A DNA stretch of 64,000 nt from Candidatus Kaiserbacteria bacterium (lineage in GTDB: Bacteria; Patescibacteriota; Minisyncoccia; Phycocordibacterales; Phycocordibacteraceae): positions 18,817 to 82,816 of the forward strand of contig JACRFL010000002.1 in assembly GCA_016217905.1 (NCBI GenBank), given 5' to 3'. The position numbers were made by a program, and so were the translations under genes. Shown in pieces: positions 2,620-55,013 of this stretch (its first letter is position 1; each line of letters starts with the position of its first letter). The notes under the pieces were generated by a model. That model worked only from the letters and a program-made list of their open reading frames with translations, did not search any database and was not told the DNA's origin.

Positions 2620-3567
2620 ATGCCGAAACGAGCGTCGGGGACGCAGTATAATACCGCAGTGGACAAGAAACTGATTCGTGCGGCAGTCGCCCTAATTCTC
2701 GCGCTTGCGGCGGGCGGCGCAGGGTACACTCTGGGCGGCTCCCCGAAGGAGAGCGTCGATATTTCGGCGCAAACCGTCTCGGCGCCGGCGGCTGGCTCGA
2801 CCCGTGTTCTCTACAGCCTCGATCAGAAACGGAACGACGAGGAGATCATCGCGCTCATCGACAGTGCGGAGAAGTACGTCTATTTTGCAATCTACACCTT
2901 TACGCTCCCGAATGTCGCCGACGCGCTCGTCGCCGCGAAAAAACGTGGCGTTGAGGTGCGGGGGGTTATGGATTCCGAACAGAGCAGTAATAGCTATGGC
3001 GCCCCCCTTACCGAGAAACTGCGGGCTGCCGGCATTCCAGTCGTGGTCGAGAAGCACGCGACAGGAAACGGCATCATGCATATCAAGCTCCTAGTAACCG
3101 AACGCGCGTATGCGACCGGCAGTTACAACTGGACGAAATCCGCGACGACCATCAACGACGAGGTCCTTGAGATCGGCACCGATCCGGCGCTTCGCCAAGC
3201 GTACGAAAATATCCTGAAACGGCTCCTCGACGCCTACCGAGGAAACAGCGCGGCCGCGGGAGCGGCCGCGAATGTTTCTATCGGCACCATCGACTATGCA
3301 CAGGCCTCTGCGCACATCGGCGAATACGCTTCCGTGAAGGGAGCGCTCGTCAAGGCCTATACGTCCAAAAGCGGAACGGTCTTCCTCGACTTCTGCACAA
3401 GCTACAAGACCTGCCCGTTCTCGGGCGTCATCTTCGCCGACGATGCGCGGAAGTTCGGCGACCTCTCCCGCTACGAGGGGTCCACCGTCACCCTCACCGG
3501 CAAGATTTCCTCCTACCAAGGCAAAGCCGAAATCGTCCTCTCTTCTCCGAGCCAGCTTTCGCCATAG
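2620..3567 (+). CDS. Secreted phospholipase D-family (Nuc-like) nuclease with a C-terminal OB-fold-like domain
   Basis: N-terminal TM/signal region. HKD motif HIKLLVTERAYATGSYNWTKSA (HxK...GSxN). C-terminal about 100 aa beta-rich domain (SVKGALVKAYTSKSGTVFLDFC...GKAEIVL). Confidence 0.7.
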   Translation: MPKRASGTQYNTAVDKKLIRAAVALILALAAGGAGYTLGGSPKESVDISAQTVSAPAAGSTRVLYSLDQKRNDEEIIALIDSAEKYVYFAIYTFTLPNVADALVAAKKRGVEVRGVMDSEQSSNSYGAPLTEKLRAAGIPVVVEKHATGNGIMHIKLLVTERAYATGSYNWTKSATTINDEVLEIGTDPALRQAYENILKRLLDAYRGNSAAAGAAANVSIGTIDYAQASAHIGEYASVKGALVKAYTSKSGTVFLDFCTSYKTCPFSGVIFADDARKFGDLSRYEGSTVTLTGKISSYQGKAEIVLSSPSQLSP

Positions 3568-19254: not shown

Positions 19255-20454
<1,200 letters not shown>

Positions 20455-20597
20455 AGTAATTATCGATAATATTCTAATAAATCACGAATATTCCGACGCC
20501 TGTCTGCGCAGGCAGGTGAGTCGGAACAAACTCCTAAGCTTGCCGACTCACAAAAAGCAGACAAGCCAAAGAGCGACGCCAAGATGCGTTAGGAGCA

Positions 20598-20625
20598 CTA
20601 TACGAGAAGGCTTCGGGAAATGCAA
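20598..20625 (-). promoter_or_regulatory. Candidate sigma70-like promoter for tuf (TTGCAT-17 bp-TATAGT, minus strand)
   Basis: Hexamers read on the minus strand in the fusA-tuf spacer. Downstream is a 5' UTR of about 135 nt containing a 9-bp stem (GTGAGTCGG...CCGACTCAC). Confidence 0.3.
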
Positions 20626-20654
20626 CTCGCCACGGGGATAAAATAGAGTGGAAG

Positions 20655-20744
20655 ATTACTTCCTACTCGCGATGATGTCTTGGGCGATATTGTTCGGGAC
20701 AGTGTCGTAGTGGTCGAATTCCATGGTCATCGAGCCGCGGCCTT
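20655..20744. repeat. Relic duplicate of the fusA 3' end (90 bp, 100% identical to 21293..21382)
   Basis: Direct sequence comparison. It encodes ...[30 protein letters not shown], identical to the EF-G C-terminus. Confidence 0.9.
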
Positions 20745-20747
20745 TTG

Positions 20748-21014
20748 TTAGATACGGTAAATCCAACTGTGCGGCCCGCAAGTGAGAAATAGCGCGGTCG
20801 AGGCGTCGAGCCAACGGAAAATAATCCGATACTGTCGATTGATCCTGAAACTCCAAAGTTCGCGCTGTTTCGGATGCAACTTTTCGGTATGCAGTGACGG
20901 ATGGTAAGGATTCTCGCTGAACAATATCCATTTCTTATGTGCTTGCTTCCGCACTGCGGCGGGCAATTCGGCAAAACGCCTTTCGAATTCAAAAGTGGTC
21001 TCGACCGCGATCAT
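20748..21014 (-). CDS. Type II toxin, RelE/ParE superfamily
   Basis: ENPYHPSLHTEKL...ELWSFRINRQYRIIFRWLD...CGPHS matches the RelE/ParE core (..L.enP.....kL.......R....YRiiy.......Ih.igpH). Overlaps the upstream antitoxin by 4 nt. Confidence 0.7.
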   Translation of the reverse strand: MIAVETTFEFERRFAELPAAVRKQAHKKWILFSENPYHPSLHTEKLHPKQRELWSFRINRQYRIIFRWLDASTALFLTCGPHSWIYRI

Positions 21015-21244
21015 GCGGCGCGAATTTTGCTGGGCATATGTACCCGGTGACTACGCCCAGCGTGGTAGTCGGCTTCGGCACGTGTCACACTCGCGAGGAA
21101 CTCCGGATTGAATAAACCAAAGGAAGCTGCGAGTCGCTCCAAGCGGTCGGCGTCAAGCTCAAGCACAAGCTTATGGCTCTTCGAATTTTTCGAACGAATG
21201 GTGGCAGCAATGCGGTTCATGTCCACAGTATAACACGCCTTCAT
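21011..21244 (-). CDS. Putative antitoxin partner of the RelE/ParE toxin (small; family uncertain)
   Basis: 77-aa ORF immediately upstream of, and translationally coupled to, the toxin. Located in the low-GC insert. The start may be the internal MNRIAATI. Confidence 0.45.
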   Translation of the reverse strand: MKACYTVDMNRIAATIRSKNSKSHKLVLELDADRLERLAASFGLFNPEFLASVTRAEADYHAGRSHRVHMPSKIRAA

Positions 21245-21293
21245 GAATTAAAGAAAATCGCCCAGGATTGATGAGTACGGCGTATCGGCCAAA

Positions 21294-23441
21294 TTACTTC
21301 CTACTCGCGATGATGTCTTGGGCGATATTGTTCGGGACAGTGTCGTAGTGGTCGAATTCCATGGTCATCGAGCCGCGGCCTTCGGTCATGGAGCGGAGTG
21401 TGGTGGTGTAGCCGAACATCTCCGAGAGCGGCACCTTTGCATGCACGACCTTGTTCATCCCGCGCTCTTCCATTCCTTCTATCTGCGCGCGCTTCCCGGA
21501 GAGGTTACCGGTGATGTCGCCCATGAACTGGTCCGGCACGACGACCTCGACGCGCATAATCGGCTCGAGAATGACCGGCTTCGCTTTCTGCGCCGCTTCC
21601 TGAAAGGCCATCGACGCGGCGATCTTGAAGGCGATTTCGGATGAGTCGACGTCGTGGTAGCTGCCGTCATAGAGGTCGACCGAGATGTCGACCATCGGGA
21701 AGCCGGCCAGATATCCGCGCGACATCGCCTCGCGCACGCCCTTCTCCACCGCCGGAATATATTCCTGCGGGACGACACCGCCCTTGATGTTGTTGACGAA
21801 TTCGAAATGATCCTCGCGAGTAACGTTCTTCGCCACTTTCGCTTCCGGATCGACCGGCTCCATCTTCTTCATCTTGATCTTCACGTGGCCGTACTGACCG
21901 CGGCCGCCGGTCTGCTTGATGTACTTCCCTTCGGCCTCCGAGGAGCCGAGAATCGTCTCGCGATACGCCACTTGCGGCTTGCCCACGTCCGCGACGACGT
22001 TGAATTCGCGCTTCATGCGGTCAACGAGAATTTCAAGGTGCAGCTCACCCATGCCGGAAATGATGGTCTCGTTCGTCTCCTCGTCGGTCTTGATGCGGAA
22101 GGTCGGGTCCTCGTCGCTAAGCTTCCTGAGCGCGATGCCCATCTTCTCCTGGTCGGCCTTTGTCGAGGGCTCGATGCGGAGGCTGACAACTGGTTCGGGG
22201 AATTTGATCTGCTCAAGCACGATAGGGCTCGCCTCGTCGCAGAGCGTGTGCGAGGTCTTCGTATCCTTCAGTCCCACCGCGGCGGCGATCTCCCCGGTGA
22301 ACACCTTTTCGACTTCTTCGCGCTTGTCGGCCTGGAGCCGGACGATGCGGCCAACGCGCTCCTTCGAGCCGGTCGTCGAGTTGTAGACGTAGGAACCGGC
22401 GGTGAGGGTACCCGAATACACGCGGAAGAAGGTCAGCGCGCCGACGAAAGGATCGGTCTGGAGTTTGAACGCGAGCGCACAGAACGGCTCGTCGTCGGAG
22501 GCGTGGCGCTCGATCGGCTCGCCGGTTTTCGGGTTCGTGCCGGTTGCGGGCGGCAGGTCCAAGGGCGACGGTAGATAGTCGACGACCGCGTCGAGCACGA
22601 GCTGTACTCCCTTGTTCTTGAGCGCGCTCCCGCAGTAGACGGGGAAGATTTCGTTATTGACGACCGCCTTGCGCAGGATCGCTTTCAATTCTTCAACGCT
22701 CGGCTCTTTGCCCTCGAGATAGGCGCTCATCGCTTTGTCATCCTGCTCGACGATGCGCTCGATAAGATCGGCGCGATACTTCTTCGCATCTTCGAGAAGG
22801 TTCGCCGGAATCTCGCCCTCAATCACCTCCTCACCCATATTCCCAGAGAAGGTATACGCCTTCATCGCGAGCAAGTCGACGACGCCCTCATGCGCGCTCT
22901 CCTCGCCGATGGGGATCTGCATGCGGATGGCCTTTTTCGAGAGACGATCAAGGATGCTCGCGTAGGAGCGCTCGAAGGAGGCGCCGACGCGATCGAGCTT
23001 ATTGATGAAACAGACGCGCGGTACCTGCGCCTCATCCGCATAGCGCCAGTTGGTCTCGGACTGAGGCTCTACCCCCGCCACCCCGTCGAAGACGACGATC
23101 GCGCCGTCAAGCACGCGCATCGAGCGCTTCACCTCGGCGGTGAAGTCGATGTGGCCGGGAGTGTCGATGATATTGAAGCGAAATTTCTTGGTCGTATCCT
23201 TCTTGTCGGACTCGCCGGTCTTTGTCCAGAAACAGGTGATGGCGGCGGCGGTGATGGTGATGCCGCGCTCGCGCTCCTGCTCCATCCAGTCGGTCGTTGT
23301 CTCGCCCTCATGCACCTCGCCGATCTTGTGCTGGCTACCCGTATAGAAAAGCACGCGCTCGCTGGTCGTCGTCTTGCCCGCGTCGATATGCGCGATGATG
23401 CCGAAATTGCGTACTTTCTCTAACGGATAGTCTCTGTTCAT
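21294..23441 (-). CDS. fusA: Elongation factor G
   Basis: [18 protein letters not shown] and NKLD G-motifs; complete domains I-V. Start set at the [15 protein letters not shown] Met. Confidence 0.97.
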
Positions 23442-23572
23442 AAAGTTTCTAAAAAATAATCCGCCAGCTGGCGGACGCCGAAGCGTTATCAACAGAATAG
23501 CCGAAATGAGAGAAATTGCAAAGTGCAGGTATGCGCAGTAAGATTTAAGAGGAGTTCAAACGAGGAAAAAAG

Positions 23573-23788
23573 ATGGGGAGACTGAAACCAGATTCTGTCG
23601 AGCACATGCTTGGAAGAGCTGATTACTTTGCAGGGCTGGTAACGGAAACGTCTGATCCAGTGTACTGGCCACCGGAAAGGATCCGAGAGGCACTCGCGGT
23701 ATTGCGCCCTGCACGGGACCTCAGGCATGCGACATACGCAACAGCTTGTGCCGCGGCCGAATGTGTAGAGTTCAAGGCAGCGTATTGA
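23573..23788 (+). CDS. Small hypothetical protein (71 aa) inside the hicAB insert
   Basis: GAGGA-type RBS 8 nt upstream. Followed by the terminator at 23811..23835. No recognisable domain. Confidence 0.35.
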   Translation: MGRLKPDSVEHMLGRADYFAGLVTETSDPVYWPPERIREALAVLRPARDLRHATYATACAAAECVEFKAAY

Positions 23789-23810
23789 AGCCTCGCTTCT
23801 CCCATTAACC

Positions 23811-23835
23811 AAAAAACCCGCGTTCCGCGGGTTTT
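23811..23835. terminator. Bidirectional intrinsic terminator (AAAAAACCCGCG-TTC-CGCGGGTTTT)
   Basis: GC stem of 6 bp flanked by an A-run and a T-run. Lies between the hicA/rpsG relic and fusA. Confidence 0.6.
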
Positions 23836-23885
23836 ACATTATTCAAAATCCCTCGACGTCGCCAGGGATGATTTTGTAAACAAAA

Positions 23886-23939
23886 TCACCACGCGAAGTG
23901 GGCGAAGGCCTTGTTGGCGTCGGCCATGCGGTGCATCAT
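23886..23939. repeat. Relic duplicate of the rpsG 3' end (54 nt; about 48/54 identical to 24563..24616, all differences synonymous or in the stop codon)
   Basis: The minus-strand reading gives MMHRMADANKAFAHFAW*. The genuine S7 C-terminus is EMHRMADANKAFAHFAW*. Confidence 0.75.
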
Positions 23940-24172
23940 TTGCCTTGCAACAATTTCAAAAATTCATCCGCTGATATTTTCGCCTGCCTAAGAATGCTGG
24001 CCAAGTCCTTGCGTGATATATCGCGCGAATGACGCGGCACCGTTGCAAATCGTGTCGGATCAGCGGCGTGCCGTAGAAATACGTGACTTCCCTTCTGTCT
24101 AATAATCGTGAACCCCGCCTTAAGGAGCGCGGCGATGATTGTCGCCGCACGAAGCATCGGCAAAATGCTCAT
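23936..24172 (-). CDS. hicA: HicA-family toxin (mRNA interferase)
   Basis: LLKAGFTIIRQKGSHVFLRH...TVPRHSRDISRKDLASILRQAKIS matches the HicA consensus (..GF...RQKGSH......G...TVP.H...L..G.L.SIL.QAGL). Confidence 0.8.
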   Translation of the reverse strand: MSILPMLRAATIIAALLKAGFTIIRQKGSHVFLRHAADPTRFATVPRHSRDISRKDLASILRQAKISADEFLKLLQGK

Positions 24173-24468
24173 GCGTATACGGTAACTGGACCGGCTATTC
24201 TTGCAGTTTTACCCTTTCCGGTTATGTGTCCTTCATCATCAATAACTATTTTTCCGTCATCGAATGCAATTTCGCACAGTCCTTCAATAAGGTCATTCGC
24301 CATGTATTTTGCGTCAGCAAGAGTGGAACCTTGCGTCATTGTTTTTTGAAAGCTTGGGACTTCTACAAGATATAATTTGTCAGACCGGTCATACCATATG
24401 AGCGCATTAAAAATGCCATATTTAGTCTTGATAAGATATTTCCTTTTCATCCGCCAAGTATAGCACAA
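24169..24468 (-). CDS. hicB: HicB-family antitoxin (N-terminal RNase H-like HicB domain)
   Basis: KYLIKTKYGIFNALIWYDRSDKLYLVEVPSFQKTMTQGSTLADAKYMANDLIEGL is close to the HicB N-domain consensus. Overlaps hicA by 4 nt. Start may be the internal MKRKYL. Confidence 0.65.
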   Translation of the reverse strand: MCYTWRMKRKYLIKTKYGIFNALIWYDRSDKLYLVEVPSFQKTMTQGSTLADAKYMANDLIEGLCEIAFDDGKIVIDDEGHITGKGKTARIAGPVTVYA

Positions 24469-24562
24469 CGGCCAATTTTGATTACTACCAAGTGAGTGAG
24501 CGAAAAGAAATTCCTATTTCACTTTTCGAACGAACGCGGGGAGGAAGCTTTGTCCTCAAAGC

Positions 24563-25027
24563 TTACCACGCGAAGTGGGCGAAGGCCTTGTTCGCATCCG
24601 CCATGCGGTGCATCTCGTCCTTCTTCTTAATTGCATCGCCCTCGTTCTTGGCGGCGAGGAGGAGCTCGGCGGCGAGCTTCTCCGCCATCGGCTTCCCTTT
24701 CTTCGCGCGTGCCGCGGTAATCAACCAGCGGAAGGAGAGAGCGAGGCGCCGATTCTGCGGCACTTCCCGCGGCACCTGGTAGTTCGCCCCGCCGACGCGT
24801 CGCGAGCGGACCTCCATCAGGGGCGAAACGTTGCGCAGCGCCGCTTCGAAGGTCTCGAGCGGGTCGGCGCCGCCTTCTTTAACCGCGGCGAGCGCGTCGT
24901 AGACAACCGCGCGGGCGGTGTCCTTCTTCCCGTCCCACATGACCGCATTGATAAAGCGGGTGAGCGTCTCCGAGCCGTAGGTGAGGTCGGGGCGCCAGGT
25001 ACGCTTCTTTTTAAGGGGTCGGCGCAT
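24563..25027 (-). CDS. rpsG: 30S ribosomal protein S7
   Basis: FINAVMWDGKKDTARAVVYDAL...VGGANYQVPREV. Confidence 0.95.
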   Translation of the reverse strand: MRRPLKKKRTWRPDLTYGSETLTRFINAVMWDGKKDTARAVVYDALAAVKEGGADPLETFEAALRNVSPLMEVRSRRVGGANYQVPREVPQNRRLALSFRWLITAARAKKGKPMAEKLAAELLLAAKNEGDAIKKKDEMHRMADANKAFAHFAW

Positions 25028-39365: not shown

Positions 39366-40286
39366 ATGAACGTCGAAAACGCGAAACGGCAATTTCTTGA
39401 ACACACCGAGATAGAGCGCGGCCGCGCAGTGAAGACCGTCGAGAACTACGACCGCTACCTTTCGCGCTACTTCGCGCAGATGGATATCAAAGACATCGGC
39501 GACATCAGCGAAGAGAGCGTCCGCGCATTCCGCCTTTGGCTCAACCGCCAGCCGGGAACGAATACCGACTCAATGAAGCGCCGCACGCAGAATTACTACA
39601 TGATCGCGCTCCGTGCTTTTTTGAAGTTCCTCCGGAAGCGCGATGTCGAGGCCATCAGTCCTGAGAAAATAGAGCTTGCGAAGCTCCCCGAGCGCCAGCT
39701 CGACCTTATTACCACGGCCGAGCTTGAGCGGCTTATGCAGGCGCCGCGGGAGGCGTTTGAAAAGGAAAAGGATCCCGATAAAGCAAGGAATTATTTGCGC
39801 GACCGTGCCATCCTCGAACTCCTCTTCTCGACCGGGCTGCGCGTGTCCGAGCTCTGTTCGCTTAATTCCGATATCGACCTATCGCGCGACGAGCTCTCGG
39901 TGCGTGGCAAGGGCGAGAAGGTGCGCGTCGTCTTCCTCTCGAGCGCTGCCAAGGAGGCGGTGCGGAATTATTTGAAAGCGCGAGACGACATGGAGGAAGC
40001 GCTCTTTGTCGACGGGCGGCCGAACAAGCTGCACCGCATTATCCCGCGTGACATCCAGCGGCACTTGAAGGCGTACGTCGCGCGCGCGGGCATCACAAGC
40101 GTGGTCACTCCCCACACCCTTCGCCACGCCTTTGCGACCGACCTGCTCTCTAACGGCGCCGATATCCGCTCGGTCCAACAGCTCCTCGGCCACGCCTCCA
40201 TCAACACCACGCAGATCTACACGCACATCACCGACAGTCATTTGCGAGAAATACACAAGAAGTACCACTCGCGTTCGAGAGGTTAG
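39366..40286 (+). CDS. xerD: Tyrosine site-specific recombinase XerC/XerD family
   Basis: N-terminal SAM-like core-binding domain. Catalytic region with R...HTLRHAFATDLLSNGADIRSVQQLLGHASINTTQIYTHI (R-H-R-Y). Confidence 0.85.
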   Translation: MNVENAKRQFLEHTEIERGRAVKTVENYDRYLSRYFAQMDIKDIGDISEESVRAFRLWLNRQPGTNTDSMKRRTQNYYMIALRAFLKFLRKRDVEAISPEKIELAKLPERQLDLITTAELERLMQAPREAFEKEKDPDKARNYLRDRAILELLFSTGLRVSELCSLNSDIDLSRDELSVRGKGEKVRVVFLSSAAKEAVRNYLKARDDMEEALFVDGRPNKLHRIIPRDIQRHLKAYVARAGITSVVTPHTLRHAFATDLLSNGADIRSVQQLLGHASINTTQIYTHITDSHLREIHKKYHSRSRG

Positions 40287-40700: not shown

Positions 40701-41471
40701 ATGAAAATCGTCTCGTGGAATGTAAATGGTCTGCGCTCGCTCGCCAAGGACGGCTACTGGGAATCCTTCTTGAAGGGCATAAAGCCGGACATCTTCTGCT
40801 TGCAAGAGACCAAGGCGAACCCGGAGCAGCTCGGAGAGGAGTTCCTCTCTCCTGACGGCTACTCGGCATTTTTCTCCTCTTGCCGGGTACGCAAGGGTTA
40901 CAGCGGCGTCGCATTGTATTCAAAGATTGAGCCTCTCAAAGTTATTTACGGCCTGGGAATACAGGAATTTGACCAAGAAGGTCGCTTTATCGGCGCTGAA
41001 TACGAAGACTTCTGGCTCTTAAACGCGTACTTCCCCAACGCCGGTCAAGGCCCCGAGCGGCTTGATTACAAATTGCGTTTCTATGACGCCTTCCTCGCAT
41101 TCGCGGAGAAATTGCGCGAACAAAAGCCGGTCATTTTCTGCGGTGATGTGAACACCGCACACGAGGAGATAGACCTCGCCCGGCCCAAAGAAAATGACGC
41201 AAACACTGGCTTTCTCCCCGAAGAGCGCGCCTGGATAGACGAGGTCGTGAGCGCCGGCTACGTCGACTCCTTCCGCCATTTCCATCCCCACACCAAGGAG
41301 GCCTACAGCTATTGGGACTTGTTTACCCACGCCCGCGACAGAAACATCGGCTGGCGTCTCGACTACTTCTTCGTCGCGAGTGAATTTATAAAACATATTA
41401 AAAAAGCCGAGATCCACCCAGACATTTACGGCTCCGACCACTGCCCTGTCTCGATTACCATCTCTTCTTAA
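40701..41471 (+). CDS. xth: Exodeoxyribonuclease III (AP endonuclease, EEP family)
   Basis: MKIVSWNVNGLRS..., QETK, ..GDVN..H..IDL.., SYW and a C-terminal GSDHCP motif. Confidence 0.9.
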   Translation: MKIVSWNVNGLRSLAKDGYWESFLKGIKPDIFCLQETKANPEQLGEEFLSPDGYSAFFSSCRVRKGYSGVALYSKIEPLKVIYGLGIQEFDQEGRFIGAEYEDFWLLNAYFPNAGQGPERLDYKLRFYDAFLAFAEKLREQKPVIFCGDVNTAHEEIDLARPKENDANTGFLPEERAWIDEVVSAGYVDSFRHFHPHTKEAYSYWDLFTHARDRNIGWRLDYFFVASEFIKHIKKAEIHPDIYGSDHCPVSITISS

Positions 41472-41717
41472 TTATTTATACGTATACGTAGTATCGTTCC
41501 TTCGACCGACAAATTCGATTTTGACCGTGTTGTGTGTGGTATAAGAAAAAATGACCCGGATATCGCCCTTCCGCACGCGGTACATATTTTCCGTTCCTTT
41601 GAGTTTTTTCACATTCAACCCGATGAGATCATTGCGGCTTAAACGCGCGATTAGGATATTCAGAGATTCACGCTCCTTCTTTGTCAGTGAGTTGAGAAAT
41701 TTATTTATTTTTTGCAT
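41472..41717 (-). CDS. Type II toxin, RelE/ParE superfamily
   Basis: NMYRVRKGDIRVIFSYTTHNTVKIEFVGRRND matches YRVRVGDYRIIY...VGHR. Its stop codon abuts the xth stop. Confidence 0.7.
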   Translation of the reverse strand: MQKINKFLNSLTKKERESLNILIARLSRNDLIGLNVKKLKGTENMYRVRKGDIRVIFSYTTHNTVKIEFVGRRNDTTYTYK

Positions 41718-41970
41718 CGAATCGCTTCATTGCAGTAATAAATTTATCTATTGACATACCGCCTTCCTTTCTGAAATCGACAACCGTCTCCCAAGTGCCC
41801 TCGTCACCCCACTCGTCCACTGGGACCAGCTTGAAGACCGGCCGAGAGCGGCGTACGACCGTAAACGATTTGCCCTGTTCCGTCTGGCGAATATAGGTAC
41901 TCATATTCTCCCGGAGCTCCTTGAGCCCGATAATCCGCTGTACCTTTTTTGTTGCGATAGCCATATGCAC
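41701..41970 (-). CDS. Phd/YefM-family antitoxin
   Basis: IGLKELRENMSTYIRQTEQGKSFTVVRRSRPVFKLVPVDEW matches the Phd/YefM N-domain. Overlaps the toxin start. Confidence 0.65.
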   Translation of the reverse strand: MHMAIATKKVQRIIGLKELRENMSTYIRQTEQGKSFTVVRRSRPVFKLVPVDEWGDEGTWETVVDFRKEGGMSIDKFITAMKRFDAKNK

Positions 41971-42018
41971 GAAGTTTATCTAAAGATAATCTTCCCGTCA
42001 ATGGGTTATATACACGCC

Positions 42019-42067
42019 CACGACATTCTACGGCTCCGACCACTGCCCCGCCTCCATTTCGCTCTAA
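42019..42067. repeat. Relic duplicate of the xth 3' end (diverged; 26/27 nt core identity gacatt(c)tacggctccgaccactgccc, frameshifted by 1 nt, ends in TAA)
   Basis: Without the extra C it reads DIYGSDHCPASISL*. The genuine xth end is DIYGSDHCPVSITISS*. Confidence 0.5.
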
Positions 42068-50129: not shown

Positions 50130-50274
50130 ACGACGCCCGTTTTGTTAGCCCCGTCCCACAAGAGGGGGCGGGATAAAGTTCTAAAAAGGTGAGGGCGGTG
50201 AGGCGGTCGGGACAGTCAGTCAGCGAGGCGGTATGAGGGGACTGTAGCACAAACGAAGCGCGCCGGCGATAAGC

Positions 50275-50285
50275 GCGCAGTGTTT
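50275..50285. repeat. 11-bp direct repeat GCGCAGTGTTT (left copy; right copy at 51485..51495) bounding the AT-rich island
   Basis: Exact 11-mer at both boundaries. The left copy sits exactly where GC content drops. Both copies are the 3' arm of a GC hairpin. Confidence 0.45.
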
Positions 50286-50352
50286 TAGAAAATTAAGATT
50301 AAATCTAGTTTATAATCAACTATTAATAGCTTTACAATATATTTAAAAGTGG

Positions 50353-50381
50353 TTGACAATCAATAAACCAAGGAATACAAT
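50353..50381 (+). promoter_or_regulatory. Consensus-like sigma70 promoter TTGACA-17 bp-TACAAT for the island gene
   Basis: TTGACA at 50353..50358 and TACAAT at 50376..50381. The -10 element overlaps the annotated ATG, so the true start may be downstream or the transcript leaderless. Confidence 0.35.
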
Positions 50382-51417
50382 GGCCTTAATGAATCGAGAA
50401 ACTGAGGTATTACAGCTGGCAAAGCTGAAAAAAAGACTGAAAACTATGGATATTATGGATTCCTTTGGGATCTCGAGACAATATGCCGTTGTCCTAGTCA
50501 ACGACCTAATATCAAAAGGTAAATTGGTTAAGGTTGGTTCAACAAATAGAGCTTACTATTTGTTACCAGAATCAGCCGACGAGGCCGGGGCATTCCCTAC
50601 ACGGATTTCTAAACGGCTAAAAAATGTAGGGCTCCAAGAGCACGAAATTTATGAAGATATTCAAAACCAATATCCTCCCGTCAAACGCGTTTCTGAAAAT
50701 GTCAGAAGTATTTTTAATTACGCATTCTCTGAAATATTAAACAACGCAATTGAGCACTCGCAATCAAAATATATAGAAGTTGAGGTATCTGTTCAAAACC
50801 GCAAATTGCGTTTTATCATCAACGATTTCGGAATCGGCGTGTTTCGTAACATCATGAAAGAAAAAGGATTGAGAACAGAAGTGGAGGCAATGCAGGACTT
50901 GCTGAAAGGAAAGACCACCACGATGCCGAAATCTCATTCAGGTCAAGGCATATTCTTTACGTCAAAGGCGGCCGATGTGTTTACACTTCAAAGCTACGGA
51001 TATATTTTAACGATAAATAACAAGATACACGAGGTCTCATATAAAATCCTTCCCGCTCTTAAAAGAGGTACGCGAGTTAGTTTTTCAATTGACGTTAATT
51101 CCCCGCGACATCTGAGCGTTATCTTTAGGAAATTCAGTGTCGGTACAGAATTTGCATTCAACAAAACAGAAATAAAAGTGAAGTTGTACGCTTCTGGCGA
51201 CGGAATCCACGTATCCAGATCTCAGGCACGACGTATTTTGGAAGGATTAGATAAATTTGAATCTATAATTCTCGATTTCGATAAGGTGCCGACAATTGGA
51301 CAAGCGTTTGCAGATGAAGTTTTCAGGGTTTTTAAAGAAAAGTATCCAAATATTGAAATCCAACCAGTAAACATGGATGACGCAGTTCGTTTTATGGTCG
51401 AAAGAGTCGGTAAATAG
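50380..51417 (+). CDS. Winged-helix HTH + GHKL-type (HATPase_c, anti-sigma/serine-kinase-like) ATPase + C-terminal STAS-like (DUF4325-like) domain protein
   Basis: N-box E..NNAIEHS. G1 box INDFGIGV. G2 box SGQGIFF. N-terminal wHTH (LQLAKLKKRLKTMDIMDSFGISRQYAVVLVNDLISKGKLVKV). C-terminal about 90 aa domain. AAGGAA RBS. Confidence 0.6.
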   Translation: MALMNRETEVLQLAKLKKRLKTMDIMDSFGISRQYAVVLVNDLISKGKLVKVGSTNRAYYLLPESADEAGAFPTRISKRLKNVGLQEHEIYEDIQNQYPPVKRVSENVRSIFNYAFSEILNNAIEHSQSKYIEVEVSVQNRKLRFIINDFGIGVFRNIMKEKGLRTEVEAMQDLLKGKTTTMPKSHSGQGIFFTSKAADVFTLQSYGYILTINNKIHEVSYKILPALKRGTRVSFSIDVNSPRHLSVIFRKFSVGTEFAFNKTEIKVKLYASGDGIHVSRSQARRILEGLDKFESIILDFDKVPTIGQAFADEVFRVFKEKYPNIEIQPVNMDDAVRFMVERVGK

Positions 51418-51462
51418 AGGACTTGAGCTGCAACTTCGCGAAATCCGACTTCGTGGGAAACG

Positions 51463-51495
51463 AAACACTGCGCCGACGAAACCGGCGCAGTGTTT
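51463..51495. terminator. Hairpin with 13-bp stem (AAACACTGCGCCG-ACGAAAC-CGGCGCAGTGTTT), a probable bidirectional terminator between the island gene and clpP
   Basis: Perfect inverted repeat; U-rich tract follows on the minus (clpP) side. Confidence 0.5.
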
Positions 51496-51508
51496 CAGTG
51501 CTGTTTCG

Positions 51509-52081
51509 TCAATTAAAAACCTTGTCGACGAGACCGTACTTCTTCGCCTCCTCGGCGGTCATGAAGAAGTCGCGCTCGACGTCCTTCTCGATCTTCGCGA
51601 GCGGCTGGCCGGTATTCTTCGAGAGGATCTTGTTCAGCACGGCGCGCAGCTTCAAAATCTGCTTCGCGGTTATCTCGATGTCGGTGGCCTGACCCTCGGC
51701 ACCGCCGTGCGGCTGGTGGATCATCACTTCGGCGTTCGGCAGCGCAAAACGCTTGCCCTTTTCTCCCGCAGAGAGGAGAATCGCCGCGCCGGAGGCCGCC
51801 ATGCCGACGCACACCGTCGAGACATTCGGCTTCACGTGATTCATCGTGTCGGCCATCGCAAGGGTCGCGGTAACCGAGCCGCCCGGACTGTTGATGTAGA
51901 GCGAAATGTCCTTCTTCGGGTCCTCGGCTTCAAGGAAGAGGAGCTGCGCGATGACGAGATTGGCGACATCGTCATCAATAGGGCCGCCGAGAAAGACGAT
52001 GCGTTCCTTGAGGAGGCGCGAGTAGATGTCGTACGCGCGCTCGCCGAATTGGCTCTTCTCGATAACCATCGGGACGAGCAT
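51509..52081 (-). CDS. clpP: ATP-dependent Clp protease proteolytic subunit
   Basis: Ser region GMAASGAA, His region MIHQPHGG and Asp of the catalytic triad. [11 protein letters not shown]-terminal region. Confidence 0.95.
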
Positions 52082-52135
52082 AGATGCGCGGGGTGAAGAT
52101 TTCATAGGTAAAAGGTTAAAGATAAAATGTCAGAA

Positions 52136-52851: not shown

Positions 52852-54234
52852 CTACTCGTCTTTTGCCTTGTCGCGGTCTTCTCCGGCGTCCGCAACGGTC
52901 TCATCGCTCGAGGGGAGAGCGGCGAGTTCTTCTTCGGCGGGAAGCTCGGTTACTTGCGGGGCCTCGTCGGTAATTATCTCCACGCTTTCGGTCGGCATGA
53001 CGCCCGCCGCTTCGGCGGGCTGCTCCTCGCCGTTTACAACAGCGACCGTTGTGCCATCGGATTCCGCGACTTCCGTACCGGCGGCGGACACGATGTCGAT
53101 ATTCCATCCCGTGAGCTTCGCGGCAAGGCGGACGTTCTGTCCGCCGCGACCGATGGCAAGCGACTGCTCGTCTTCGGCGACGGTCACGGTGGCGCGGTGA
53201 TCCGCTTCATCAAGGACGACCTCGATCGGGGTGGCGGGCGAGAGCGCTTCCTTCACGAACTCTTTCGCGTCGTCGTTCCATTCGATGATGTCAATGCGTT
53301 CGCCGCCGAGCTCGCTCATCACGGTCGAGACGCGCACGCCGCGCTGGCCGACCAAGGAGCCGACCGGGTCGACATGCGCATCGAGCGAGGCGAGCGCTAT
53401 TTTGGTGCGGCTGCCCGGCTCGCGCGCGAGCGCTTTTACTTCGATAGCGCCTGAGGCGAGCTCCGGCGCTTCCATCTCGAAGAGCTTCACGACGAAAAGA
53501 GGATGCGCGCGAGAGAGCCGCAGGTACACGCCGCGGAAGCCTTCGTCCACCGCGTAGAGGTACGCGCGGATGCGCTCGCCGATGCGGTACCGCTCGCCGG
53601 GGATCTGCTCCTCGTAGGGGATGATGCCGGTCGTGCGCCCGAGATCGATGAAAAGAGCTCCCCGCTCCATGCGCTGGACGGTGCCGCTTACGATCTGCCC
53701 CTTCTTCTCGCCGAACTCCTCCATCATCGAGAGCTTCTCGGCTTCGCGCACCTTCTGGATGACCACCTGCTTGGCGGTCTGCGCCGCGATGCGGCCGAAG
53801 TCGTCCTGCGGCTCAAGCGGGAAGATGATCTCCTCGCCGACCTCCGCGCCACGCTTCATCAACCTCGCGTCGGCCAGAAGAATGTGCTTCTCCGGATCAA
53901 AACGCGGAAGCTCTCCCTCGGCTAAATCATGTTCTGCATGATCGCCCGACCATCCGCCGCGCGGATGGTGTAGAGCGAGATGTTCTTCCGCGACCACCTC
54001 ATCCGGGGCGGGGAAGCGCACCGTCGTGTCGTCCGCCACCGTCTTCACCTGCTCAAAGGAGATGGTGCCCGTGTTGAGGTCGAGCTTGGCGCGCACGACC
54101 TGCCCGCGCTTGCCGTATTCGCGCTTGTAGGCGGTTGCCATCGCGCTCTCGATAGCCTCGACCATCGTGGCGCGGCTGATCCCGCGGTCTTCAAACTCCC
54201 CGAGCACTGCATTGATGGTCTTTAAATCAATCAT
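52852..54234 (-). CDS. nusA: Transcription termination/antitermination factor NusA with an acidic C-terminal tail
   Basis: N-terminal domain (INAVLGEFEDRGISRA...), S1 domain, two KH domains (GSLVGQRGVRV; AIGRGGQNVRLAAKLTGW). Start at the internal MIDLKT. Confidence 0.9.
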   Translation of the reverse strand: MIDLKTINAVLGEFEDRGISRATMVEAIESAMATAYKREYGKRGQVVRAKLDLNTGTISFEQVKTVADDTTVRFPAPDEVVAEEHLALHHPRGGWSGDHAEHDLAEGELPRFDPEKHILLADARLMKRGAEVGEEIIFPLEPQDDFGRIAAQTAKQVVIQKVREAEKLSMMEEFGEKKGQIVSGTVQRMERGALFIDLGRTTGIIPYEEQIPGERYRIGERIRAYLYAVDEGFRGVYLRLSRAHPLFVVKLFEMEAPELASGAIEVKALAREPGSRTKIALASLDAHVDPVGSLVGQRGVRVSTVMSELGGERIDIIEWNDDAKEFVKEALSPATPIEVVLDEADHRATVTVAEDEQSLAIGRGGQNVRLAAKLTGWNIDIVSAAGTEVAESDGTTVAVVNGEEQPAEAAGVMPTESVEIITDEAPQVTELPAEEELAALPSSDETVADAGEDRDKAKDE

Positions 54235-54376
54235 ATGGAATGTGTATGTCGCACTGTTTATAAAGAAAGCCCCGTTGGGGCATTCAGGTGGGGAGAAGTA
54301 TATCAAACCTACTTTGGGTGTCAACAATGGCTGAGAGGGTATATACTGGGCGCACTTATTCATTAACTACAGACAC

Positions 54377-54640
54377 ATGGCTGAAGGACTGCAGGAAGGA
54401 TCGTGGGAGGAACAAAAGAGAAACCTGGACAAGAATCCAGATTTTCACATGGACACGAGCAAGGAAGTCGACCCGGTAGAAAGGCTTGTCGAGCAGTTGG
54501 GATGGGAAGGCGCGCTGGAGCGTGTCCAAGAGAATCTTGATAAAAATCCCAATGACGAAGAGGCTCGTCGGCAGGCGAATCTTATGGTCAATCTTATGAA
54601 CAAAAAAATGCAGGGGCTGAGGGATAAACTAAGCCACTAA
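54377..54640 (+). CDS. Small hypothetical acidic protein (87 aa) in a lower-GC stretch
   Basis: ORF only; helical/charged; about 45% GC. Confidence 0.3.
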   Translation: MAEGLQEGSWEEQKRNLDKNPDFHMDTSKEVDPVERLVEQLGWEGALERVQENLDKNPNDEEARRQANLMVNLMNKKMQGLRDKLSH

Positions 54641-54710
54641 AACTCGGAATACGTTTCGTGTGTGCAATGCGCGTCCAGCCACAGGCCGGACGCGCTATAC
54701 TGTACTCTCT

Positions 54711-55013
54711 ATGCCCGGTATGACAACTTCGGATAAAAACTTTCACTATGTCTATGTGCTTGAAAGCGCATCGGATGGTAAGCGATATATCGGGATGACT
54801 GCGGATCTACGCCGACGGTTCCAAGAGCATCAAAAAGGTAAAAGTTTTGCTACGGCTCCGCGGCGGCCTTTCTCGCTCATTCACTACGAAGCAGGTCGGT
54901 CGTATGTAGACGCCAAGAACCGCGAGAAGTATTTCAAGACAACGGCAGGCCGCCGCTCTCTTGCAAGGCGACTTCGAGATTACGTCGAAAGGCGTGATCC
55001 GAAGTTGTCATAA
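54711..55013 (+). CDS. GIY-YIG nuclease-domain small protein
   Basis: FHYVYVLESASDGKRYIGMTADLRRRFQEH (GIY...YIG with the Arg/Glu catalytic residues). Confidence 0.7.
   Translation: MPGMTTSDKNFHYVYVLESASDGKRYIGMTADLRRRFQEHQKGKSFATAPRRPFSLIHYEAGRSYVDAKNREKYFKTTAGRRSLARRLRDYVERRDPKLS

Follow-up and report, generated by a model that had tools for sequence, protein, structure and literature searches.

A toxin-antitoxin cassette between copies of the fusA end in the str operon of a Candidatus Kaiserbacteria genome, and a case for its insertion by host homologous recombination

How did a small toxin-antitoxin cassette come to lie between two essential genes of the translation machinery, with the end of the upstream gene repeated on its far side? 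The question is raised by a stretch of 64,000 nucleotides (nt) from the genome of an uncultured, ultra-small Candidatus Kaiserbacteria of the Candidate Phyla Radiation (CPR), contig JACRFL010000002.1, positions 18,817 to 82,816, hereafter the window. Its minus strand carries the gene order rpsL, rpsG, fusA, tuf, rpsJ, rplC, rplD, and between fusA and tuf an insert of 548 nt encoding a toxin-antitoxin pair is enclosed by two direct copies of the fusA 3' end. The reading that we favour, with a probability of about 0.58, is that host homologous recombination both made and maintains the structure, as a recombinase-free insertion with long target duplication. The features of the locus, with relatives given by their locus handles (L001 and so on), are as follows.

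19255..20454, minus strand: tuf (EF-Tu), from its open reading frame (ORF) and tblastn
20455..20654, minus strand: native fusA-tuf spacer with the tuf leader; 86-94% identical blocks in L001, L002, L004, L008 and L082
20655..20744: distal (displaced) fusA 3' end with its stop codon, from the repeat and the alignment to the tuf leader
20748..21014, minus strand: toxin gene, 88 amino acids (aa), RelE-superfamily (YoeB-like) fold, from family search and structure model
21011..21220, minus strand: antitoxin gene, DUF2683-like, about 69 aa from MNRIAAT; the ORF reaches 21244; 4-nt overlap with the toxin gene
21221..21292, minus strand: non-coding left end of the cassette, with a -10-like TATACT at 21227-21232, 6 nt ahead of the likely antitoxin ATG
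21293..21382: proximal repeat copy, the functional last 29 fusA codons with stop and 1 nt; 100% in the repeat search
21294..23441, minus strand: fusA (EF-G) coding sequence, 715 aa, ATG at 23441, stop TAA at 21294-21296; 88-92% aa identity to Kaiserbacteria fusA

The direct repeat (20655-20744 and 21293-21382) is identical over all 90 nt and is the longest of the 64-kb window; it cannot be a chance match. The distal copy starts 3 nt past the toxin stop and runs directly into the native tuf leader, which aligns over window positions of about 20641-20518 to the relatives L001, L002, L004 and L008. An earlier reading of this DNA, made from the sequence alone, had placed the repeat at exactly these coordinates with 100% identity, had set its distal copy against the native fusA-tuf spacer, and had described the geometry as gene, stop, cassette and displaced old 3' end, all of which holds. 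Its base composition does not: it had put the insert at 48% GC in a 64% host, while measurement gives 51.1% for the insert, 59.6% for fusA and 58.6% for the window. The perfect block also has a ragged edge, with degenerate homology in the 7-10 nt or so upstream of the distal copy (TAACAAAAGG versus TGACCGAAGG); the 10 nt next to the block hold 3 mismatches. This suggests an older and longer duplication that has since been homogenised in part.

The TATACT box at the left end of the cassette may act as a promoter, and TATACT or TATAAT boxes occur at the equivalent place in L082, L127 and L134. Co-transcription with fusA and tuf, which the earlier reading had expected, is a prediction only; the cassette has this -10-like box of its own. 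A consensus promoter scan of 20300-21500 returned none, the two weak terminator-like hairpins found there are at chance level, and Rfam at gathering thresholds gave only tRNAs in the window, with no RNA element in the insert. Two further observations concern the repeat. A 91-aa ORF at 20656-20931 (minus strand) overlaps the toxin gene in another frame, runs in frame into the displaced fusA end and gives a weak EFG_C Pfam match; it is probably spurious, though tempting to automatic annotation. In addition, 17 nt of the left end (21251-21267) are 82% complementary to 20678-20694 and 21316-21332, in both copies of the fusA end; such segments could pair in a read-through transcript, with about 0.3 matches of this kind expected by chance on our estimate.

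The antitoxin ORF (21011..21244) and the toxin ORF (20748..21014) are co-oriented and overlap by 4 nt (ATGA), and the motifs ENPYHP, YRIIFR and GPHS that had been picked out in the translation are present. By family search the toxin matches PF05015 HigB-like_toxin with an E of 1.7e-7 (32.1 bits against a cut-off of 27, which it passes), PF24732 ParE_like with 22 bits, under the cut-off of 24.4, and the NCBIfam model TIGR02116 YoeB with an E of 1.5e-6 (28.3 bits), under the equivalog cut-off of 51.8; it is outside the YoeB equivalog though its fold is YoeB-like. An AlphaFold model built from eight family members has a mean confidence (pLDDT) of 92.9, and Foldseek gives as its best PDB matches YoeB, RelE, RelK and YafQ, with template-modelling (TM) scores of 0.73-0.79. 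The top 36 PDB matches are YoeB, RelE, YafQ and related toxins, including uncharacterised Helicobacter pylori toxins; ParE2 structures rank 38th or lower with TM scores of about 0.57, and HigB matches weakly (E about 3e-3). The toxin-family alignment holds invariant E, R, H and Y positions, H81 and Y85 among them, which would be compatible with an active site of the YoeB type (E46, R65, H83 and Y84 in YoeB).

The partner gene is a constant companion: in 76 of 82 loci a small homologous ORF lies directly upstream, its end no more than a few bases from the toxin start. The antitoxin of the window (69-77 aa) gave nothing above threshold against Pfam and NCBIfam, and its profile found no solved relative in the PDB; 11 of 18 members of its family match PF10884 DUF2683, with a best E of 3.6e-6. 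Sequence and model together indicate a type II toxin-antitoxin module that looks functional, belongs to the RelE superfamily, has a YoeB-like fold and encodes its antitoxin ahead of the toxin. This gene order excludes HigBA, whatever the Pfam name suggests; the antitoxin, moreover, is DUF2683-like with no HTH_XRE match, and HigB structures match weakly. A ParE gyrase poison was likewise rejected, with the ParE_like score under its cut-off and ParE structures ranking low. The RelE/ParE toxin of the sequence-only reading is therefore real as to module and superfamily and is YoeB/RelE-like, not ParE-like, and the family search that it had called for succeeded for the toxin directly and for the antitoxin only by way of its family members. 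The module resembles YefM-YoeB and RelBE in toxin fold and size and in having the antitoxin first, here with a 4-nt overlap; unlike them, its antitoxin belongs to the uncharacterised DUF2683 group and is neither YefM/Phd nor RelB.

The same cassette stands at the same place in other genomes. The nearest to the window share about 80-83% fusA DNA identity. In L082, another Kaiserbacteria (fusA protein 90%), a homologous pair follows fusA, with a toxin of 81% and an antitoxin of 67% aa identity, and a perfect 47-nt copy of the fusA end begins at the toxin stop codon, the same junction as in the window; on its right this displaced copy stops after 47 nt, where a further small gene of 100 aa, without family assignment, interrupts it. 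In L127, a more distant Parcubacterium with a fusA of about 75% and a toxin of about 50% aa identity, the junction falls at the same codon, between ATG and ACCGAAGG. Its copy of the fusA end is 89 nt long and 94% identical, and similarity goes on codon by codon to the stop (TGGK-stop versus TGSK-stop). L101, a relative of L127, has the cassette at fusA with no displaced copy, and in L150 and L157 the cassette family sits between rpsG and fusA.

When the copies are compared across genomes they group by genome. The two fusA-end copies are 100% identical within the window and 100% identical within L082, and 83% identical between the two genomes; the proximal and distal copies of L127 are 88% identical, and 82% is found against L101. 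Such grouping bears the signature of concerted evolution, by gene conversion or by re-integration.

The fusA end has also been displaced by other cargo. L010 has a displaced end of 101 nt (98%) with 3.2 kb of cargo that is not a toxin-antitoxin pair, and L003 a perfect 18-nt copy past an MntA/HepT pair. In L001 (7196-7243) and L027 (4550-4597) the last 15 fusA codons recur in recoded form 47-57 nt past the real stop, with 33-42% base differences, yet 11-12 of the 15 residues are kept; the L001 copy has GC-rich codons in a 53% GC genome. The displaced fusA ends in relatives score 54-149, against a reverse-strand control maximum of 24. Across Patescibacteria the fusA-tuf gap ranges from 89 to 3,582 nt and the rpsG-fusA gap from 7 to 2,356 nt, with varied cargo; where the fetched locus of a non-CPR genome includes tuf, fusA and tuf are mostly about 50-250 nt apart. 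After rpsG in L082, an unrelated 114-aa membrane-protein ORF (765-1109) ends in an 18-nt copy of the rpsG end (AHFAW-stop), and successive insertions appear to stack at the rpsG and fusA junctions of this genome (765-1109 and 5265-5640).

The sequence-only reading had treated the event as single. The window in fact has at least three such events, the others following rpsG and an xth-like exonuclease gene, with a further candidate after clpP.

23886..24614, minus strand: second instance, after rpsG; 50-nt repeat, 94% identity
24565-24614, minus strand: rpsG 3' end, stop TAA, one copy of the repeat of the second instance
24169..24468, minus strand: hicB-like ORF of the rpsG instance, no family match
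23936..24172, minus strand: hicA, PF07927, E 4.9e-16
23886-23937, minus strand: displaced rpsG end, stop TGA, the other copy of that repeat
41427..42067, plus strand: third instance, after the xth-like exonuclease gene; 37-nt repeat, 84%; tblastn E 1e-4
41427-41471, plus strand: xth-like 3' end
41472..41717, minus strand: small toxin-like ORF of the xth instance, 81 aa, no family match
41701..41970, minus strand: Phd/YefM antitoxin, phd_fam, E 8.6e-9
42029-42067, plus strand: displaced xth end, where YGSDHCPASISL-stop stands against YGSDHCPVSITISS-stop
50260..51498: candidate fourth instance, after clpP (51509..52105, minus strand); weak hairpin repeat

At rpsG all three differences between the copies are synonymous and the stop codons differ (TAA versus TGA). 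The proximal allele (GAT...TAA) is like those of L001, L002 and L008, and the displaced allele (GAC...TGA ttt) like those of L003, L004 and L006; the first 80 nt or so past the proximal rpsG stop are homologous to the L001 sequence after rpsG. In the third instance the displaced xth end carries conservative substitutions and is followed by a terminator-like hairpin. A protein-level tblastn of every gene end against its downstream 4 kb put exactly fusA, rpsG and xth above noise; a stop-anchored protein scan of the window gave nothing past fusA and rpsG, xth being added by the local tblastn only. The clpP case lies in an island of low GC (50169-51545, 40.7%) with a 354-aa gene (50353..51417, plus strand) whose product has a helix-turn-helix-like N-terminus, HATPase_c_2 and a STAS-like DUF4325; the gene is flanked by two copies of a terminator-like hairpin (51470-51498 and 50260-50288; 29 nt, 79%). 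This island may be an insertion with target duplication; it is only a candidate because the repeat is weak.

Some neighbouring features may be recorded here. From the displaced rpsG end to the fusA start, about 380 nt (23493-23885) are found in no relative; they hold a strong terminator-like hairpin, aaaacccgcggaacgcgggtttttt (about 23815-23840, minus strand), and a 71-aa ORF (23573..23788, plus strand) with no family match, and may be the remnant of earlier cargo. A XerC/D-type tyrosine recombinase with Phage_integrase and SAM_1 domains is encoded at 39366-40286 (plus strand), 1.1 kb ahead of the xth instance; it resembles the housekeeping type, and nothing was found to connect it with the cassettes. 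At 54377-55013 (plus strand) a small ORF without family match precedes a 117-aa GIY-YIG nuclease-domain protein, with a patch of lower GC at 54157-54891.

Is the arrangement peculiar to the str operon? A metagenome scan yielded 319 stretches that encode relatives of the toxin; 80 loci were kept, and for each the upstream flank of the cassette was compared with the downstream flank, 67 loci being usable. Bracketing direct repeats of 33-159 nt (42-228 bits) were found in 10 of the 67. Mismatched loci reached a maximum of 24 bits and the opposite strand a maximum of 32, and none of 84 random positions gave 33 bits or more; 10/67 against 0/84 corresponds by our own arithmetic from the counts to a one-sided Fisher P of about 2e-4. 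In seven of the ten the end of an adjoining gene is duplicated: fusA (L082, L127), genes for large secreted proteins with tails like those of the type IX secretion system (L100, L096), a membrane-protein gene (L134), a gene for an S1-domain protein (L095) and a gene on the opposite strand (L138). A wider scan added L140 and other events (L098, L113). A scan of viral contigs for the toxin family found no relative, and so no evidence of a phage vector.

The other three of the ten contain arrays of small cassettes (L118 2259-7548, L139 2750-5366, L120 108-1336), among them a VapC-like pair, the YoeB-like pair and others. Their spacers are a dispersed 60-100-nt repeat ending in CCTCCTTTCTCAACCCAGAAAAATTTTCTGAGCTCAGAAAGAA, each then followed by a TTGACA/TATAAT promoter. 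The arrays are organised like an integron array, although no attC consensus was recognised in them; a repeat scan of L139 also showed seven 42-nt units in tandem at 2964-3341, which if coding would make 14 codons apiece.

Two properties of the copies bear on how they arose. The first is where the homology ends: in the window, L127 and L096 it stops at the target stop codon, and in L100 it reaches the stop with small indels. An edge at the stop codon is what homology-driven exchange with the DNA of a relative predicts, since conservation between genomes ends there. The second is the nature of the differences. Over ten repeat pairs we counted 58 synonymous and 30 non-synonymous codon differences (66% synonymous), where random hits would give 22-27% synonymous and the in-place decay of a dead copy, by estimate, about 40%; against the 40% expectation the binomial P is 8e-7. 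The repeat-copy differences thus look like those between alleles, and the synonymous bias implies that at least one copy of each pair was shaped in a working gene elsewhere, or that the resident end was overwritten by recombination with relatives.

The cassette itself offers little that could move it. The insert holds only the two toxin-antitoxin ORFs and no recombinase or transposase gene; it has no terminal inverted repeats beyond chance, the best pair being the 17 nt (82%) shared by the left end and the repeat. There is no conserved end motif at the cassette junctions, and the repeats at different targets are unrelated, with no common core. Since recombinase, inverted ends, end motif and common repeat are all lacking, a site-specific recombinase or a classical transposon is unlikely. 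More specific candidates were also set aside. An integron gene cassette has no room for attC in the 0-13 nt between toxin stop and repeat; no IntI lies near the insert, in a window not scanned exhaustively for it. A transposon or miniature inverted-repeat transposable element does not agree with the lack of terminal inverted repeats and with duplications of 18-159 nt, of no fixed length. Tandem duplication first and insertion afterwards, as the main route, does not explain why the very diverged L001 and L027 copies still keep residues, and a reverse-transcriptase or cDNA route has no reverse transcriptase nearby and no specific support.

We therefore return to insertion by host homologous recombination. 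DNA consisting of a conserved gene end plus the cassette, either circular or linear and anchored on one side, would recombine with the resident gene end, and the product would be an intact fusA, then the cassette, then the old end. One route would be Campbell-type (ends-in) integration of a circular or permuted molecule of gene end and cassette, and recombination between the two repeats would release exactly such a circle. Another would be one-sided-homology integration of a linear fragment from a relative, that is, homology-facilitated illegitimate recombination (HFIR). DNA uptake ability has been described in CPR bacteria. Gene conversion, or repeated pop-out and re-integration, would keep the copies alike within each genome; toxin-antitoxin addiction would penalise cells that lose the cassette through the repeats; and the distal copy would be a conserved coding homology arm beside a non-conserved spacer, easing exchange of cassettes among diverged lineages. 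RecA dependence, conversion and the roles of addiction and of the homology arm are what we infer from this picture. The alternatives originally offered, an element that carries a replacement end for its target gene or a Campbell crossover, still form the best family of explanations.

The distal copy could have another reason to persist, namely signals for tuf lying within the fusA end. Internal tufA promoters are present inside fusA of Escherichia coli. This idea, which is possible, is weakened by L082, in which the distal copy is cut off from the spacer.

Several observations weigh against insertion by host recombination. Homologous recombination alone does not explain the first duplication at each new target. 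The synonymous bias would also arise from a duplication in place if recombination had later overwritten the resident end. In six loci with four target genes (fusA and the targets of L134, L095 and L100) only 0-13 nt separate the toxin stop from the displaced copy, a right junction tighter than random illegitimate joining predicts, which suggests that the element has a defined end. Contigs of the same species were sought by exact protein look-up; the toxin, P0001, tuf, fusA and hicA gave none and RpsG one, a 1.2-kb contig identical to the window, and neither an empty site nor a circular junction came to light in this way. Finally, three of the ten repeat-flanked loci, the array-bearing L118, L139 and L120, represent a dispersed inter-cassette repeat and no target duplication; they were rejected as such because the repeat recurs between several neighbouring cassettes.

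The rival that survives best is duplication in place, in which a staggered-cut or replicative template-switching insertion (transposase-like, or of the type of microhomology-mediated break-induced replication) would have placed a precise unit, from promoter to toxin stop, while duplicating its target, the alleles coming from later overwriting. The perfect copies in the window and in L082 agree with it, as do the tight right junction just described and the clustering of insert lengths at 545-550 nt (window, L127, L134); the L134 and L095 insertions are internal to a gene, and the two copies there have different tails. We nevertheless consider it doubtful. There are no terminal repeats, end motif or transposase in or near the insert; the duplications span 18-159 nt, and long target duplications lie far above the range reported for transposons (PMC2853133); homology that ends exactly at stop codons, as in several cases, is not predicted by cutting; and only strong site specificity would account for one and the same fusA junction in three diverged lineages.

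Slightly less credible is a recent single acquisition in this genome, whether by a Campbell crossover or by a replacement-end element, dated by the perfect repeat, as the sequence-only reading had it. The 100% identity over 90 nt and the lower GC of the insert speak for it, and recent re-integration within the population would look the same. The perfect repeat does not, however, date the insertion, because the copies are homogenised per genome. The insertion is old because the same family stands at the same fusA codon in L082 and L127, where fusA DNA identity is about 81% or less, and because the divergence of the cassette is about that of housekeeping genes: between L127 and L101 the DNA identity is 78% for the cassette, 81% for fusA, 82% for tuf and 76% for rpsG, and between the window and L082 it is 81% for fusA and 72% for the toxin gene. 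The toxin is 81% identical to its nearest non-identical relative, and the repeat edge is degenerate. The comparison points to a cassette that has been at the fusA junction for about as long as the lineages have been split, or that moved between lineages long ago. Sister genomes with fusA next to tuf and no cassette had been expected; most relatives do have a single fusA end, but they share only about 80% DNA identity with the window and mostly carry other inserts there, while L082 and L127 carry the cassette. Relatives at about 80% DNA identity, from the one genome-collection scan made, are too distant for breakpoint mapping.

Another possibility, which we hold to be improbable, is a remnant or non-autonomous derivative of a tyrosine- or serine-recombinase element whose att site included the 3' end of the target, the integrase being lost or acting in trans, as in a cis-mobilizable element (CIME). 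The geometry is classic, the element supplying an intact end and displacing the old one (PMC2853133), and a XerC/D-like tyrosine recombinase is encoded at 39366..40286. This sole recombinase of the window looks like a housekeeping Xer, though, and lies 19 kb from fusA; the insert is only 548 nt long and has no integrase; the fusA, rpsG, xth and other repeats have no common core; and the repeat at the fusA site varies in length (18, 45, 47, 90 and 101 nt).

It is very unlikely that the structure is an artefact in which the repeat led the assembler to join on a separate cassette, a small circle or part of a plasmid, with a fusA fragment: a perfect 90-nt repeat can mislead short-k assemblers and the exact look-up found the toxin and antitoxin proteins in no other indexed assembly, but the architecture recurs in independent assemblies whose repeats are imperfect and cannot collapse (L127 94%, L010 98%; truncated copy in L082), and the separate assembly L081 is 100% identical to the window over 25125-23905, reproducing the junction of rpsG, hicBA and displaced end base for base.

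How does the favoured reading, insertion by host recombination, relate to what has been described? The closest precedent is insertion with long target duplication, known from restriction-modification (RM) systems (Nobusato et al. 2000; Furuta, Abe & Kobayashi 2010, PMC2853133). In the published cases the repeats range from 46 to >400 bp, no mobility genes are present, the species are mostly naturally competent and no mechanism has been established; the 3' end of a neighbouring gene is overlapped by some of the repeats, and the GC content deviates from that of the host (PMC2853133). A life cycle has been proposed for them in which insertion is followed by repeat-mediated amplification or release (PMC2853133), and PMC3874152 restates long target duplication for RM systems only. 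The present locus is alike in its addiction-type pair, long (>30 bp) and variable direct repeats, lack of transposase and integrase, 3'-end overlap and GC deviation: where that signature calls for repeats >30 bp around an insert <20 kb with no mobility gene in or beside it, we find 90 nt around 548 nt and no such gene. It is unlike in its cargo, which is a type II (in L003 a type VII) toxin-antitoxin module and sometimes genes other than addiction genes. DNA breakage caused by the cargo cannot be the common cause, because the cargo here is not an RM system, and the locus is a variant of long target duplication and not a member, because its cargo is a toxin-antitoxin pair. It further differs in its CPR host and core str operon junctions, in the use of the same junction across lineages of about 80% DNA identity with copies homogenised per genome, and in that the published cases rest on empty sites within the same species, the present one on comparison with diverged relatives.

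Three other systems share part of the pattern. The minimal mobile elements of Neisseria (Saunders & Snyder 2002; Snyder et al. 2007) are described in PMC3787668, and their exchange is thought to proceed via transformation and homologous recombination in the flanks (PMC3787668). Like them, the str operon junctions rpsG-fusA and fusA-tuf hold different cassettes between the same conserved genes, with spacers of about 10 nt to >3 kb; this variable content between conserved flanks is what marks such elements. Unlike the present case, they are not defined by duplication of a flanking gene end, which here may be the downstream homology arm. Integrative elements with a replacement 3' end (islands in tRNA, tmRNA and ribosomal-protein genes, integrative and conjugative or mobilizable elements, and CIMEs) have the same order of gene with intact end, element and displaced end; unlike them, the present cassette has no integrase and no common core site and measures only about 550 nt. 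Homology-facilitated illegitimate recombination during transformation is defined in PMC3240628. Its one-sided anchor with a non-homologous tail would give an intact imported end followed by foreign DNA, although the tight right junction beside the toxin stop is not what it predicts. In the known cases HFIR mostly deletes recipient DNA and does not duplicate it.

A literature search of partial coverage, and thus no proof of novelty, found this signature unreported for toxin-antitoxin modules or for CPR genomes. On the sequence evidence, what appears to be new is the toxin-antitoxin cargo, the location in the str operon, the conservation of the junction across diverged lineages, and copies that are allele-like yet homogenised.

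Taken as a whole, these results define a concrete and repeatable signature, in which the end of a conserved gene is duplicated over a long stretch, the copies are allele-like, the junction is conserved across diverged lineages and the copies are homogenised per genome. They extend long target duplication, a phenomenon documented for RM systems in the literature searched, to several toxin-antitoxin families and, in ultra-small CPR bacteria, to the core translation operon. In annotation work, a gene end that recurs in frame as a short copy behind a small insert marks such an event, and ORFs that read into these copies are probably spurious. Chromosomal toxin-antitoxin modules are horizontally mobile, usually without an adjacent mobility gene, and their movement is a long-standing loose end; the present cassettes suggest that such modules may lodge and spread by host recombination alone. 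More tentatively, they might form a class of recombinase-free mobile addiction cassettes, each carrying the conserved 3' end of an essential or widespread gene as a portable homology arm, which RecA, probably after uptake, would insert at the same gene wherever that end is conserved, with addiction blocking their loss. If true, the portable homology arm would account, in CPR bacteria at least, for the spread of chromosomal toxin-antitoxin modules that have neither transposase nor integrase.

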